From: Escherichia phage PP01
Sequence record: NC_054930.1
Length of the DNA: 64,000 nt
Direction: 5' to 3' (one strand)
A program made the translations under genes and the position numbers. The notes under the pieces are model-generated. The model was not told where the DNA came from and ran no database searches. It worked only from the letters and a program-made list of their open reading frames with translations. How positions within the stretch are numbered: the first letter of the stretch is position 1; each line of letters opens with the position of its first letter. This document shows, one piece after another, positions 40,589-45,325 of this stretch.

Positions 40589-40912
40589 TTAATCTTCTAT
40601 GATATCTCTATCATATCCAAGTGAAATGAGAGTTTCTTTGAAGTGTTTAATGTTCTTTTGTCTAGAATCATTAATGAAAATGACTGGATAACGAATGTTA
40701 AGAGATGTGAATCCAGCGCGTTTAGCAAGAGATACAATCAGCGGACGATCATACTCAATCTTACCATTATTTGTAAGAACTTTATAGAAAGTAAAAGGAG
40801 CATTGAGCTCCTTTAGAAGTTTTGTAACTGATTGACATCCAGGACAACGACCTACTTCATCTGGAATTCCATAGACTTCAATCTTATTCTTTAAGTTCGA
40901 GTTTTGTTCCAC
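40589..40912 (-). CDS. nrdH: NrdH-like glutaredoxin
   Basis: CPGC redox motif; ORF track reports 40589-41041 but probable GTG start at 40912 with AGGA upstream (about 107 aa). Confidence 0.55.
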   Translation of the reverse strand: MEQNSNLKNKIEVYGIPDEVGRCPGCQSVTKLLKELNAPFTFYKVLTNNGKIEYDRPLIVSLAKRAGFTSLNIRYPVIFINDSRQKNIKHFKETLISLGYDRDIIED

Positions 40913-41195
40913 GAGAAATAATTCCTTGGTAAGCCCAATAAGGAGGATTAACAGAATCCTCACCAGAGTTTTCTTCAGGAAAATAAACCTGGATAACGAA
41001 GCCGGATTCATCAAAGGTAAAATAAACCGTAGGCAGTTCACCTAACAAATCGGCACGAGCGTTGATTTCTTCGAGGTCTTGTTCACGTCCAGCCCAGAAG
41101 CTTGGGTTCAGACTACATTCATAGAAATAATAGTCATTACCGAACATATCAAAACCATTCCAACTCTCTACTACATACCGCTCAAAACTAATCAT
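40884..41195 (-). CDS. hypothetical protein
   Basis: 103-aa ORF. Confidence 0.45.
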   Translation of the reverse strand: MISFERYVVESWNGFDMFGNDYYFYECSLNPSFWAGREQDLEEINARADLLGELPTVYFTFDESGFVIQVYFPEENSGEDSVNPPYWAYQGIISRGTKLELKE

Positions 41196-41197
41196 AA

Positions 41198-41413
41198 TTA
41201 AGCCTTTTTATCAAGAACAGCATTCAGCTTATTAGTAATTTTATCCAGACGCTCATTGAACTCACTAGAAGATAGTCCTTTTTCTGGAGAAATCAAACTA
41301 ATCACGAAAAATATAGCAATAAAAGGAATAAGGAAAATAGCTCCAACTGCCATAAACAAAAAGAATGTTACGGTTGTAAGAAAATCAGCTAAACCTTTAC
41401 GAAATTTATACAT
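41198..41413 (-). CDS. small membrane protein
   Basis: 71 aa with hydrophobic helix. Confidence 0.45.
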   Translation of the reverse strand: MYKFRKGLADFLTTVTFFLFMAVGAIFLIPFIAIFFVISLISPEKGLSSSEFNERLDKITNKLNAVLDKKA

Positions 41414-41528
41414 ATTTTACCCTTAATTAATTAACCAAGCATTGATAAGCACTAAACTATATTGGGAATAAAATTCTGGACCAAAATGAAAAATCATATC
41501 ATTTATAGTATCCATAATGTAATTCAAT

Positions 41529-41999
41529 TTAATCATGTTTCCACACCCCATCGGTATTTGACCAAAGTCGCTGATTATCTGATCCTCGCCACAGCTTTTT
41601 GGTCGGAAGATTTTTCTCATACTTCCCATCAATAATAACATCAACATATTTAAGCATTTCTAGTTGTTTAATATCTTCAAACTTATATCCTGTCCACAAC
41701 CAAATGCTTTTATTTGGATAAAGATTTTTTACTGTTTGAACAATGCAATGAACAACATCTCGGTTATCAGGATAGAGAGGGTCTCCTCCAGTTATAGTTA
41801 ATCCTTCTATATAATCATTATTCAAACATTCAATTAATTGTTCCAGCGTTTCACCAGTGAATGGAATGCCATTTCTAGCATTCCATGTTGATTTATTATA
41901 ACACCCTTCACATTTATGCAAACAACCTGTAACGAAAAGAACGACCCTGCAACCAGGGCCATTCACAAAGCAGCACGGGTATATTCTGTCATAATTCAT
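41529..41999 (-). CDS. nrdG: anaerobic ribonucleotide reductase activating protein (radical SAM)
   Basis: CxxxCxxC radical SAM cluster motif (CLHKCEGC); start at Met 41999 (about 156 aa). Confidence 0.85.
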   Translation of the reverse strand: MNYDRIYPCCFVNGPGCRVVLFVTGCLHKCEGCYNKSTWNARNGIPFTGETLEQLIECLNNDYIEGLTITGGDPLYPDNRDVVHCIVQTVKNLYPNKSIWLWTGYKFEDIKQLEMLKYVDVIIDGKYEKNLPTKKLWRGSDNQRLWSNTDGVWKHD

Positions 42000-42826
42000 A
42001 ATAATATCCAATTTTTCCAAGCTTCATCAGTAGAATTACAGCGTTTTAGTATAAGATGTCTAGAAACTTTTATGGCATTTGAGCACTTTTTAATTGAATC
42101 ATATTTAATACCGTCAACTGAAACGGTTTTGCTAGTTGGAGAAATTTTTCCATACATTGGATTTTTTGAACCAACTTGAAGTCCTTTTAAAGCTTTTGAA
42201 AGCTTTTGTCTAGATTCCAATGACATGGGAGAATTCTTTTTACCTTCAATAATTCGCTTGCGATGAAGTTCGCGTTCTTCTTCACTCAAAGAATTGTAAT
42301 ATTTTTTAACACCGTTTGATATAGATAATTTATCTTTCTCAGACCGCTCTCCAGCTAATTTACTTCTAACATCTTTTCGCTTCATAGCTATGCTTACGGC
42401 TTTATTTAAATTTGCTTGATGCTCTGGCGTACGTTTATATTTCTTTAAAGCACGTGAAATAGCTATTTTAGTTTCTTCTGTTCTCTTTTTACCTTTATTT
42501 GCTAAACTATTTTTGCGGCGATGTTCAAGTGTCTGTTCATAGGCAGTTCCACCTTTTCCACCAGGTTTAATATTATATGTATTTTCTTTTAGACAATACT
42601 CTTCGGTTACAAGTTCAGCTTCTTTATCATACATTTGTTTTTCATTATCAAAAACATGTAAAATTTCTTTATTAAAATTTTTTCTACCATATTTTAATAA
42701 AGCGGCACGAATCAATGTTCCTGACCCCATATAACCGTCATTTATGTTATCGGTGCTATGCGCACCGATATATTCCTTTGAATTAATTATATTTGTTATT
42801 TTATAAATTATATAATACCTATGCAT
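41996..42826 (-). CDS. free-standing GIY-YIG homing endonuclease (Seg-like)
   Basis: 276 aa; GIY-YIG motif YIIYKITN...KEYIGAHS; basic C-terminal DNA-binding repeats; inserted between nrdG and nrdD. Confidence 0.7.
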   Translation of the reverse strand: MHRYYIIYKITNIINSKEYIGAHSTDNINDGYMGSGTLIRAALLKYGRKNFNKEILHVFDNEKQMYDKEAELVTEEYCLKENTYNIKPGGKGGTAYEQTLEHRRKNSLANKGKKRTEETKIAISRALKKYKRTPEHQANLNKAVSIAMKRKDVRSKLAGERSEKDKLSISNGVKKYYNSLSEEERELHRKRIIEGKKNSPMSLESRQKLSKALKGLQVGSKNPMYGKISPTSKTVSVDGIKYDSIKKCSNAIKVSRHLILKRCNSTDEAWKNWILL

Positions 42827-44636
42827 GTTTTACTCGTTTTACCATTTCTTTCATTTTACCTAAATTCCATGGAACAACGCTAGGAGTTCCAAGATAACCG
42901 CATGTTCTTCTTATGGTGTTCATCTTTTTAGGATCAGTTTCTCCACAAATAGAACAAACAAATCCGTTTTCAGTAGGAGTCATTTCATGGGTACTTCCAC
43001 ACGTAAAACATTTATCTACCGGCATGTTAACACCAAAATAATCTAAATGTTGTGCAGCATAATCCCATACGGCCTCAAGACCCTTTAAGTTATTTTTCAT
43101 ATCAGGAAGTTCAACATAAGAAATGTGACCGCCTGTCGCAATGAAATGATATGGCGCTTCACGAGAAATCTTTTCAAACGGAGTAATATTTTCTTCTACT
43201 GAAACATGGAAACTGTTAGTGTACCAGCCTTTATCGGTAACATCTTTTACGCTTCCATATTTTTCTGTATCGAGTTTACAGAAGCGATAACAAAGGTTTT
43301 CAGCAGGAGTAGAATACAAGCTAAAAGCAAAACCGGTTCTTTCAGTCCACTGCTTAAGACGAGCATTCATTTTAGTCAAAATTTCCTGTCCAATATCACG
43401 ACCGACAAGAATATTCAATTCGTGAATACCAATGTATCCTAGGGACACTGAACTTCTACCGTTTTTAAATAACTCAATTATGTCGTCATCAGGTTTAAGA
43501 CGAACCCCGAATGCACCTTCTTGGTAAAGAATAGGAGCAACAGTCGCTTTAACTCCTTTTAAGGAACTAATTCTACACATCAAAGCTTCAAAACACAAAT
43601 CCATACGTTCATTGAATAATTCAACAAATTTCTGTTCATTGAACTGTGTTCCAATATAAGAATCTAACGCGATGCGAGGAAGATTCAGTGTTACAACACC
43701 AAGATTATTACGTCCATCAAGAATTTCATTACCAGTCGAATCTTTCCATACGCTCAAGAAACTACGGCAACCCATTGGAGAAACAGGAACAGATGAACCA
43801 GTGATAGCTTTATTGTTCTTAGCTGAAATAATATCAGGATACATCCTTTTGCTTGCACACTCTAGAGCAAGCTGCTTAATATCATAGTTCGGATCGTCTT
43901 TATAAAGATTAACACCTTCTTCAACGAACATAACAAGTTTAGGGAAAATAGGAGTTATCCCATCACGACCAAGACCTTTAATACGATTTTTCAGAATTGC
44001 TTTCTGAATCATTCGTTCAGTCCAGTCAGTTCCCGTACCAAATGTAATTGTTACAAAAGGCGTTTGTCCGTTTGAACTAAAGAGAGTATTTACTTCATAT
44101 TCATAAGCTTGGAACGCATCGTATACGTCTTTTTCTGTTTTAGATTGGGCATAATTCAACGCGTCAGCGATTTGCCATTTTTCTGCATCCTCAATATGTT
44201 TTGCATAGGTGCGTTTAACATAAGGAGAAAGGACTTTATCTACATTCGCAAAAGTCGTTCCACCGTATTGATGGGAAGCAACCTGTGCAGTAATTTGTGC
44301 CATAATTGCAGTAGCAACACCGATTGATTTAGGAGTTTCAATCTGTGCATTACCGAGCTTAAATCCGTTCTCAAGCATTCCTTTTAAATCTACTAAACAG
44401 CAATTAGTAAATGGAAGAGCAGGGGAATAATCAATATCATGGAAATGAATAATTCCGCTTTCATGCGCTTTCATAATAAAAGACGGGACCATATTTTTGG
44501 CAATGTGTTTAGACACAATACCAGCCATAAGGTCCCGTTGAGTTGGAAAAACACGAGAATCTTTATTAGCATTCTCGTTTAAAAGGTCTTTATTAGTTTT
44601 ATGAATCAATCCTTCAATTTCTTTTTCAATTGTCAT
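42819..44636 (-). CDS. nrdD: anaerobic ribonucleoside-triphosphate reductase (glycyl radical enzyme), intron-less
   Basis: 605 aa continuous ORF; C-terminal glycyl radical motif RTCGYLG; Zn ribbon CFTCGS...CSICG. Confidence 0.92.
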   Translation of the reverse strand: MTIEKEIEGLIHKTNKDLLNENANKDSRVFPTQRDLMAGIVSKHIAKNMVPSFIMKAHESGIIHFHDIDYSPALPFTNCCLVDLKGMLENGFKLGNAQIETPKSIGVATAIMAQITAQVASHQYGGTTFANVDKVLSPYVKRTYAKHIEDAEKWQIADALNYAQSKTEKDVYDAFQAYEYEVNTLFSSNGQTPFVTITFGTGTDWTERMIQKAILKNRIKGLGRDGITPIFPKLVMFVEEGVNLYKDDPNYDIKQLALECASKRMYPDIISAKNNKAITGSSVPVSPMGCRSFLSVWKDSTGNEILDGRNNLGVVTLNLPRIALDSYIGTQFNEQKFVELFNERMDLCFEALMCRISSLKGVKATVAPILYQEGAFGVRLKPDDDIIELFKNGRSSVSLGYIGIHELNILVGRDIGQEILTKMNARLKQWTERTGFAFSLYSTPAENLCYRFCKLDTEKYGSVKDVTDKGWYTNSFHVSVEENITPFEKISREAPYHFIATGGHISYVELPDMKNNLKGLEAVWDYAAQHLDYFGVNMPVDKCFTCGSTHEMTPTENGFVCSICGETDPKKMNTIRRTCGYLGTPSVVPWNLGKMKEMVKRVKHA

Positions 44637-45106
44637 TTTAAACTCTTTCTAAGCTGCTTCTTAAATGAAGCTATTAATTGTGTTTTAGTGTCAGATTCAT
44701 TATATTCAAATCCTCTTTGAAGCATCTCAGCCATCATTTCCTCTTTTCCTAAACGAGAAAATTCCTTTGATTTATCTCCAACGAAGTTAGGGTGAATATT
44801 ATTTTGGGTGTAATCGGATTTTAAATAAGTAAGTAAATTTTCTAGCCATTCAAGATAATCAACACCTTGTCCCTTTAAGCCAGAACGATTGAATTTATGC
44901 TTCATTTGACCTTCTGCAGCATTACAGAGATTACATAGCAACCCACGTACCTTTCCTGCTTTTGGTCCATTTAATTCATGGTCATGGTCAAGGTGATTAG
45001 CTTGAACATCAGGATTTAGTTCTCGTTGGCAAATTAAGCATTTACCGTTTTGTGCATCATAAAATTTCTGTTTTTCTTCTTTGTATAATTTGCCAGTCAA
45101 TAACAT
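44633..45106 (-). CDS. 49: endonuclease VII (Holliday junction resolvase)
   Basis: 157 aa as in T4 gp49; Cys-rich Zn site and HNH-like core. Confidence 0.88.
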   Translation of the reverse strand: MLLTGKLYKEEKQKFYDAQNGKCLICQRELNPDVQANHLDHDHELNGPKAGKVRGLLCNLCNAAEGQMKHKFNRSGLKGQGVDYLEWLENLLTYLKSDYTQNNIHPNFVGDKSKEFSRLGKEEMMAEMLQRGFEYNESDTKTQLIASFKKQLRKSLK

Positions 45107-45145
45107 AATAAAACCCTTACCTTGAATAGATAAGGGTATTTATTA
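45107..45145 (-). promoter_or_regulatory. hairpin abutting the gene 49 translation start
   Basis: CCCTTA...TAAGGG stem immediately 5' of the gene 49 ATG; T4 gene 49 is known to be controlled by RBS sequestration on the early transcript. Confidence 0.45.
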
Positions 45146-45148
45146 TTT

Positions 45149-45325
45149 TCAAGTATTGTAAAACATTCGATGCAATCGCTTATATTGTCGAATCATCTTT
45201 TTAGTAGGACGAGAATAAGTTCCTATACAAGTGGTCATATTAGGGTCAGTAGGACTTCCTTTAATAAAAAGTTTCCAAACCTTACCGCCATTTAACTTTT
45301 CAGTATAAATTAATTCGGTTTTCAT
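45149..45325 (-). CDS. small hypothetical protein
   Basis: 58-codon ORF found by hand; TAATG overlap with upstream stop; followed by hairpin. Confidence 0.35.
   Translation of the reverse strand: MKTELIYTEKLNGGKVWKLFIKGSPTDPNMTTCIGTYSRPTKKMIRQYKRLHRMFYNT

Follow-up and report, generated by a model that had tools for sequence, protein, structure and literature searches.

That cassettes of free-standing homing endonucleases carry replacement gene ends along and so make mosaic boundaries in phage genomes is an established concept, treated by Edgell et al. 2010 in review (PMC2988022) and in 'Nuclease genes occupy boundaries of genetic exchange between bacteriophages' (2023; PMC10448857). The described system closest to the locus considered here is SegH of phages RB3, LZ2 and T6, whose DNA is 99.8-99.9% identical to the present gene, with the same position between nrdD and nrdG and the same overlaps with its neighbors; there is no difference of substance between them, the nrdD and nrdG alleles that flank the present gene being about 2% diverged from those of any database phage. 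More distantly, SegH has its modular plan in common with I-TevI from the td intron of T4 (structures 1MK0, 1LN0 and 1I3J), which provides its top fold matches and in which the two Tyr, the Glu and the Asn of the active site can be aligned. I-TevI is intron-encoded, whereas SegH is free-standing, has a DxYxGSG loop in place of the I-TevI helix alpha-1 segment (R27, H31), and is built with a linker of NUMOD3 repeats, unlike I-TevI; sequence identity is only 22-25%. T4 mobC resembles segH in being free-standing, promoter-poor and overlapped with its neighbors, in the same slot and orientation, but it encodes an HNH enzyme of unrelated fold, is inserted inside the first nrdG codons, and is accompanied by some 300 nt in which nrdG has diverged strongly, whereas segH is linked to a recoded nrdD tail. 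The other T4 Seg endonucleases share the GIY-YIG subfamily (many SegH homologues carry PF19835) and the intron-less lifestyle of homing and marker exclusion (PMC2988022); their loci and targets differ from those of SegH.

In the window (the whole stretch of 64,000 nucleotides from Escherichia phage PP01 that was analyzed), the minus strand carries, in this order, gp49, nrdD, an ORF of 276 codons, and nrdG, with the following features:

41529-41999, minus strand: nrdG, the activase (Pfam Fer4_12 and Radical_SAM; junction letters inspected)
41970-41988, minus strand: recoded nrdG head, coding nt 12-30 (comparison with T2)
41996-42826, minus strand: segH, free-standing GIY-YIG homing endonuclease gene (276 codons plus stop; ORF list)
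42008-42151, minus strand: predicted C-terminal I-TevI-type DNA-binding domain of SegH, residues 226-273 (Pfam, Foldseek)
42137-42529, minus strand: helical linker of SegH with NUMOD3 repeats, residues ~100-230 (Pfam, predicted model)
42542-42826, minus strand: GIY-YIG catalytic domain of SegH, residues ~1-95 (family profile, Foldseek)
42819-42893, minus strand: recoded nrdD tail, coding nt 1744-1818 (comparison with T2)
42819-44636, minus strand: nrdD, large subunit of the anaerobic ribonucleotide reductase, intron-less (605 codons; Pfam)
44070-44125, minus strand: empty group I intron site of T2-type sequence (exon junction mapped against T4)

The neighbors are readily assigned (Pfam NRDD, E=6.5e-172, plus Gly_radical for the nrdD protein; Fer4_12, E=2e-48, for the nrdG protein). 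The ORF starts with an 8-nt overlap of its ATG with the nrdD stop (ATGCATAG) and ends in an ATGA, in which its stop TGA (41998-41996) overlaps the nrdG ATG (41999-41997); coordinates and junction letters thus confirm the first-pass annotation, made from the sequence alone, in its placement of a GIY-YIG ORF between nrdG and nrdD with a 4-nt overlap of the nrdG start. The product has a database match of 100% identity (E=1.4e-174), and all 276 of its 276 residues are identical to RB3 SegH (GenBank ABI48949.1), with five residue differences from T6 SegH and a match to PHROG 314, 'homing endonuclease' (2.4e-60); it is therefore no chance reading frame, and what had been called a Seg-like free-standing GIY-YIG endonuclease receives a specific name. 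We regard it as almost certain that the ORF is segH, in a junction slot left vacant by most T4-like phages and filled in T4 by the HNH gene mobC; T2 and REP4 show the empty slot as a direct nrdD/nrdG ATGA junction, and empty junctions dominate the sampled ranking of 813 records. The presence of segH at nrdD/nrdG is already known, having been published in 2005, and the finding is correct but ordinary: GenBank AY262138.2 and AY262139.2 annotate segH between nrdD and nrdG, as does the T6 record, and the title of Sandegren, Nord & Sjoberg 2005 (NAR 33:6203) speaks of segH replacing mobC. Several RB-phage genome records call the gene 'segD', a name derived from similarity that does not refer to the T4 segD locus.

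DNA of segH occupies the same slot in 71 phage records, T6, RB3 and LZ2 among them, and near-identical copies occur in mosaic backgrounds. In 53 of the 71 the identity is at least 99% and the flanks are more diverged than segH itself, which fits recent horizontal spread. Decayed copies are seen in PD112, where a remnant of 28% of the gene is left, and in phage sutha, where the ORF is split.

The architecture of SegH is predicted to be I-TevI-like, with an N-terminal GIY-YIG nuclease, a helical linker of NUMOD3 type, and a C-terminal DNA-binding domain. For the nuclease, the general Pfam GIY-YIG model (PF01541) gives no significant match to SegH (E=2.9), SegE_GIY-YIG (PF19835; 18.6 bits against a cut-off of 25) and TIGR01453 match it below their curated cut-offs, and a single-sequence phmmer search of the PDB yields chance hits only; a family profile was needed to reach the I-TevI structures, and it aligns to the catalytic domains 1MK0 and 1LN0. 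The AlphaFold2 model, with a pLDDT of 93-98 over residues 1-90, contains the alpha/beta GIY-YIG fold according to Foldseek, which returns 1MK0 as the top match (probability 1.00, TM 0.67 on the target). NUMOD3 is found in the linker at 33.8 bits (cut-off 20.4) and in three stretches at a relaxed threshold, the linker being all-helical in the predicted model. The Pfam model I-TevI_DNA-bd matches the C-terminal part with E=3e-4 and 21.1 bits, under its cut-off of 27, and Foldseek matches the model to 1I3J with probability 1.00.

Column conservation marks Y8, Y19, G21, E69, Y84, and N85 as invariant in the family. Y8 and Y19 are present in 39/39 homologues and align to Y6 and Y17 of I-TevI; in the HMM alignment, Y84-N85 lie opposite I-TevI Y89-N90, and E69 falls within one residue of E75. 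For I-TevI Arg27, the alignment of the 39 homologues offers no alignable counterpart: nine I-TevI residues, R27 among them, form an insertion relative to the SegH family, and an invariant D30-x-Y32-x-G34-S35-G36 loop replaces the helix that carries R27 and H31. The nearest conserved candidates for the role are H23 (38/39) and K/R40 (33/39). This absence characterizes the whole subfamily, not the window copy alone, and the chemistry of the active site may thus differ in detail. Of the catalytic residues on which the first-pass annotation had made its reading depend, the GIY Tyr, the YIG Tyr, the Glu, and the Asn therefore stand, as invariant positions, while the Arg27 position is unmatched.

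What the present analysis adds, from comparison of sequences, is that a recoded nrdD tail and a recoded nrdG head appear to travel with segH. The statistics come from nrdD and nrdG coding sequences of equal length compared without gaps, MAFFT on whole loci with large indels having given misleading identities at the junctions (for example '1.00' for T2 at the nrdG head). Relative to T2, the nrdD tail differs at 31 of 75 nt and the rest of nrdD at 38 of 1743 (Fisher p=1.7e-27), with 11 substitutions in residues 584-605; the recoded block begins directly past the glycyl-radical motif RRTCGYLG, with the breakpoint at codon 583/584. In the 19 nt of the nrdG head there are 8 differences from T2, compared with 10 over the other 452 nt of the gene (Fisher p=4.7e-8), and the protein is changed by F6I and D10C. 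The recoded tail is found in 79 phage records and is identical to the window in T6 and PD112; the head is identical in T6, EC128, and GADU22. Tail and head together accompany segH in T6 and EC128, and the PD112 remnant keeps the tail; in SHFML-11, the recoded tail occurs with mobC and is hence not strictly tied to segH. The start of segH and the nrdD tail of T2 type have a 9-nt sequence in common, ATGCATAGG, which lies in another frame with respect to nrdD; it was considered as a mark of the original insertion point, or it may be only the microhomology used in the SHFML-11 hybrid.

Neither a T4 late promoter (TATAAATA) nor a MotA-box middle promoter occurs on the coding strand in 41400-45300, and a sigma-70-type scan gives fewer promoter-like sites than shuffled sequence and none upstream of segH. 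The gene would be transcribed along with nrdD, with coupling or re-initiation giving a low level of translation. When a segH-less phage infects the same cell, SegH would cut both DNA strands of that phage in its nrdD/nrdG junction region; recombinational repair from a segH-carrying genome would then transfer segH, together with the flanking sequence, to the cut genome, with homing and localized marker exclusion as the outcome. SegH is reportedly known from the 2005 study to cleave site-specifically close to its own locus and to home in mixed infections; it is also said to cut the DNA of its own phage, in which case the recoded flanks are no simple immunity device.

As judged from the sequence comparisons, the recognition or cleavage site probably lies in the 3' end of nrdD, near the glycyl-radical motif, which is exactly where the recoding begins. 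In FL18 an independent nrdD deletion, which leaves a fusion ORF ending in '...KTPSVVPWNLGKMKEMVKRVKHA', stops at the same codon; furthermore, two SegH relatives in distant phages (P0004 and P0003), 47-48% identical, are likewise encoded immediately after nrdD, and nrdG lies over 2 kb from them. An active SegH that targets the 5' end of nrdG instead seems rather improbable to us, even though the nrdG head is recoded in linkage with the cassette, mobC and the GADU22-type HNH gene are clearly inserted inside the first nrdG codons (mobC starts MNYDRIY and the GADU22 gene MNYDRFYPCDFVN, both copies of the NrdG N-terminus), and nrdD and nrdG are both described as targets in review (PMC2988022). It is nrdD that holds the FL18 breakpoint and the larger of the two recoded blocks, the distant relatives stay beside the nrdD 3' end in the absence of a nearby nrdG, and GADU22 has the recoded nrdG head without segH, so that this head may stem from an HNH cassette which segH displaced.

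Two further readings deserve less credence. That segH is an inactive or domesticated remnant, which no longer cleaves DNA and is kept only through the coupled translation of nrdG, we consider highly improbable: the Arg27 equivalent is absent, the ATGA coupling could make deletion costly, and copies have decayed elsewhere (PD112, sutha), but the ORF is unbroken, its product matches the SegH named in 2005 residue for residue, the Arg is missing family-wide, and 39 diverse homologues show no change at Y8, Y19, E69, and N85, which points to purifying selection on the active site; the 53 records in which segH DNA of at least 99% identity lies between more diverged flanks likewise speak against a remnant. 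The other reading follows from the first-pass annotation, which had set the endonuclease next to an nrdD that is intron-less, unlike that of T4. As a description this holds: nrdD is a single ORF, colinear in alignment with spliced T4 NrdD, and an Rfam search finds no group I intron in 41300-45300, the same search returning RF00028 at 105 bits from the T4 nrdD locus as positive control; nor is segH intron-encoded, as it lies between two intact genes with no group I intron in the Rfam search. In the comparison with the T4 exon junction and the mobC region, proposed at the same time, T4 has the intron and mobC, and the window has neither, with segH in the slot of mobC. As a framing, however, it carries no weight. 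The T4 nrdD intron is found in 27 phage records, against ~800-975 with the region, and an intron-less nrdD is thus the default with or without segH; phage EC128 has segH together with an nrdD intron containing I-TevII, and in six more records the match is split by ~1 kb, a signature as in EC128. The intron position, between nrdD coding nt 538 and 539 (window 44099/44098), is ~1.27 kb from segH, and over coding nt 541-600 T2, REP4, and T6 each have 0 mismatches to the window, where T4 has 6 in nt 541-570 and 2 in nt 571-600. A tie of segH to the absence of the intron, for example through targeting of the insertion site or exclusion of the I-TevII intron, is supported by the co-occurrence in the window and by nothing else; EC128 and the six split records, the rarity of the intron, and the distant site, at which the window is identical to the segH-less T2, leave it practically no chance, and it was rejected.

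A broader reading of the junction, as a small arena in which endonuclease genes of at least four unrelated kinds supplant each other, each cassette with its own recoded gene end, is tentative and in our estimate on the doubtful side. Its members may be segH, mobC, the GADU22-type HNH gene, and the FL18-type GIY-YIG gene, and the gene ends they carry may be recoded either at the NrdD C-terminus, directly past the glycyl-radical loop, or at the NrdG N-terminus. Such ends may serve as target-site immunity modules; since NrdD and NrdG interact, they might also represent a matched pair of NrdD tail and NrdG head. If the arena reading is true, the hybrid cassettes of SHFML-11 and GADU22 are natural swap experiments.

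For the locus itself, the result has little significance beyond correct annotation, in that the gene should be named segH in place of the 'segD' or 'hypothetical protein' of several records. Beyond this, the recoded flanks yield a specific prediction of where SegH would cut, and the locus provides an example, at base resolution, of how free-standing homing endonuclease cassettes would bring replacement gene ends with them and thereby make mosaic boundaries.

The window spans the leftmost 64 kb of a T4-like phage genome (Tequatrovirus), and the region in question carries four genes, listed here in their minus-strand order:

44633-45106, minus strand: gp49, endonuclease VII
42819-44636, minus strand: nrdD, 605 codons
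41996-42826, minus strand: segH ORF, 276 codons
41999-41529, minus strand: nrdG

The segH ATG lies within the final nrdD codons (…AAACATGCATAG; overlap 8 nt), and its stop codon TGA shares an ATGA with the nrdG start. All coordinates of the first-pass annotation are correct, including those of an ORF between nrdD and nrdG with a 4-nt ATGA overlap, and the nrdD that it had described as single is an uninterrupted ORF. Between nrdH and 55.8, a segment of about 324 bp that is missing from T4 contains a 103-aa ORF (MISFERYVVESW…; 40884-41195, minus strand), which overlaps the upstream part of the nrdH reading frame and is also present in REP4.

The ORF is the already published SegH, which the title of Sandegren, Nord & Sjoberg (2005, NAR 33:6203) describes as replacing mobC: its protein is identical to RB3 SegH (ABI48949.1) at 276 of 276 residues and differs from T6 SegH at 5. 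The locus is 97-98% identical over 3.8 kb, with the same gene order, to many coliphages, including T6, RB3, EC121 and ACG-C40; the ORF is labeled 'homing endonuclease', 'segH' or, wrongly, 'segD' in these relatives (the last in the RB3-group genome records KM606994-KM606999 and NC_025419), and nrdD-segH-nrdG is annotated in the short GenBank entries AY262138.2 (RB3) and AY262139.2 (LZ2). The T6 record AP018814.1 gives this region product names that do not suit the genes there (RNA ligase, tail sheath, head completion); its annotation looks shifted.

In SegH, Pfam finds NUMOD3 above threshold, and an I-TevI-type DNA-binding domain and a SegE-type GIY-YIG domain below it; TIGR01453 ('group I intron endonuclease') matches the whole length at 3e-13, under its cut-off, and PHROG 314 ('homing endonuclease') matches at 2e-60. 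The best four PDB matches of the AlphaFold2 model (39 homologues; mean pLDDT 86.8, 93-98 over the first 90 residues) are all to I-TevI, the T4 td intron endonuclease: to its catalytic domain (1MK0 and 1LN0, probability 1.00, TM 0.62-0.67 on target) and to its DNA-binding domain (1I3J, probability 1.00). Y8, Y19, G21, E69, Y84 and N85 are invariant in the 39 homologues (32-91% identity); aligned with the SegH family profile, they correspond to I-TevI Y6, Y17, G19, E75 (with a one-residue offset in the HMM alignment) and Y89-N90. In contrast, I-TevI Arg27 has no alignable counterpart in the family (profile alignment, 39 homologues): nine I-TevI residues including Arg27 are an insertion relative to the SegH family, which has an invariant D30-x-Y32-x-G-S-G loop in their place, and the conserved candidates nearest to this position are H23 (38/39) and K/R40 (33/39). 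This absence is a trait of the whole SegE-like subfamily and no defect of this copy. Since Y8, Y19, E69 and N85 are invariant and the Arg27 gap is subfamily-wide, the endonuclease reading, which the first-pass annotation had tied to the GIY-YIG catalytic residues, stands unrefuted, with one canonical residue missing.

A query of the nrdG 5' part joined to the nrdD 3' part returns 813 records; in a list evenly sampled from these, the match is mostly one continuous stretch of about 920 bp, and the nrdD/nrdG junction therefore empty. The junction of T2 and REP4 is a bare ATGA, in which the nrdD stop codon overlaps the nrdG start. The slot is occupied by segH DNA in 71 phage records (at least 99% identity in 53 of them), by DNA of mobC, the T4 HNH endonuclease gene, in 32, and by a third gene, for a 279-aa HNH protein, in GADU22 (L007 1888-2727, in that locus's own coordinates, as for the other loci below). 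The N-termini of the mobC product (T4 locus, L002 2907-3539) and of the GADU22 HNH protein repeat that of NrdG (MNYDRIY… and MNYDRFYPCDFVN…), and the ends of both re-create the nrdG start (…WKY(K/I)(D/N)EL*, overlapping ATGAATTATGA); the two genes are therefore inserted within the first nrdG codons, mobC sitting in the same slot as segH, a comparison that the first-pass annotation had pointed to. Both therefore carry a replacement nrdG start. T4 nrdG (L002 2447-2917) is 76.9% identical to window nrdG (109/471 mismatches). The divergence is confined to the mobC-proximal ~300 nt at the start of the gene, and its final 170 nt are nearly identical; this looks like a long foreign tract linked to mobC.

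Compared ungapped over equal-length coding sequences, window and T2 nrdD show 38 differences in nt 1-1743 versus 31 in the final 75 nt (42893-42819; Fisher p=1.7e-27), and nrdG shows 8 in the 19 nt from nt 12 to 30 (41988-41970) versus 10 in the remaining 452 (p=4.7e-8). In the nrdD tail the window sequence is shared without a mismatch by T6 and PD112, and over nt 1-30 of nrdG by T6 and EC128. The recoded tail starts right after the glycyl-radical motif RRTCGYLG and amounts to 11 changes in the last 22 NrdD residues (…GYLG-TPSVVPWNLGKMKEMVKRVKHA vs …GYLG-NPNERGFNLGKNKEIMHRVKHQ); it occurs in 79 records, slightly more than have segH, the surplus including hybrids. Immediately after the recoded head, the nrdG coding sequence contains a terminator-like GC-rich hairpin with a T-run (codons 12-22; 41939-41964, minus strand; GAATGGCCCTGGTTGCAGGGTCGTTC TTTTCG) and, downstream of it, a good sigma-70-like promoter (41895-41922, minus strand; TTTGCA, 16 nt, TG, TATAAT; 10/12).

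One such hybrid is the Shigella phage SHFML-11 (L012 856-1587), where a segH-type tail passes, at the shared 9-mer ATGCATAGG, into the end of a T4-type tail followed by mobC; its record annotates nrdG as shortened. GADU22 combines a T2-type tail with a segH-type nrdG head. In the Mosigvirus FL18 (L013 978-2469), nrdD is absent and a 222-aa GIY-YIG-like ORF, other than segH, continues in frame into exactly the final 21 codons of a segH-type tail, followed by intact segH and nrdG; this would leave nrdG without a partner nrdD at this locus. PD112 (L004 2412-2722 and 4530-5218) has a decayed segH (28% of the gene remaining), an nrdG annotated as truncated, and another homing endonuclease gene between gp49 and nrdD; the adjoining ~240 nt at the start of nrdD show strong divergence (55-78% identity).

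SegH probably cuts at the nrdD 3' end, because three independent lines point there: the start of the recoded block, at codon 582-584; the end point of the FL18 rearrangement, which falls on the same codon; and two SegH relatives (47-48% identity; one on a 175-kb phage contig, the other on a metagenomic contig), which lie directly downstream of an nrdD ending …RRTCGYLG…RVKHN. The nrdG head, the other recoded flank, is an unlikely target in its stead; in these two contigs nrdG follows more than 2 kb further on. As for the nrdD 3' end, homing endonucleases typically target conserved, functionally critical sequence (a general statement; Edgell et al., 2010, PMC2988022), and by analogy the glycyl-radical motif would be of the kind that they typically use.

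No T4 late or MotA-type middle promoter is found on the coding strand in 41400-45300, and no sigma-70-like site upstream of segH. The segH ATG, which lies in the 8-nt nrdD overlap, is preceded by no more than a weak GAG some 7 nt away, so that translational coupling or re-initiation, with a low yield, is the likeliest mode of SegH synthesis; translation of nrdG would in turn depend on coupling to the end of segH. Similar arrangements are described for other T4 endonuclease genes that lack a promoter (PMC2988022).

T4 nrdD has a group I intron and that of the window has not, as the first-pass annotation had it: Rfam detects no group I intron in 41300-45300, but in the positive control, the T4 locus, it scores RF00028 at 105 bits. 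The T4 exons, spliced in silico, give a protein colinear with window NrdD, and the intron site is equivalent to window position 44099/44098. Around it the window matches T2, a phage with neither segH nor the intron, at every position; T4 carries, relative to the window, T2, T6 and REP4, 6 substitutions in the 30 nt directly 3' of the site and 2 in the next 30 (T4 exon 2 start; 44096-44037 in the window, where the site is of the T2-type intron-less form), a pattern that fits an I-TevII intron co-conversion tract. Only 27 phage records carry this intron, and EC128 has segH and the intron with I-TevII together; in the locus-match table, the match is split by about 1 kb in six further records. The intron-less nrdD, which had been framed as relevant to segH, is unrelated to it: a link between segH and intron absence is contradicted by the co-occurrence in EC128, the rarity of the intron and the T2-like site.

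The initial observation is confirmed, and its interpretation as a Seg-type endonuclease supported. SegH is reported to have cleaved site-specifically close to its own locus, to have cut DNA with and without segH, and to have homed when infections were mixed. Added here are a base-resolution account of the recoded flanks, a prediction of the cleavage site, and the hybrid and decayed cassettes in other phages.
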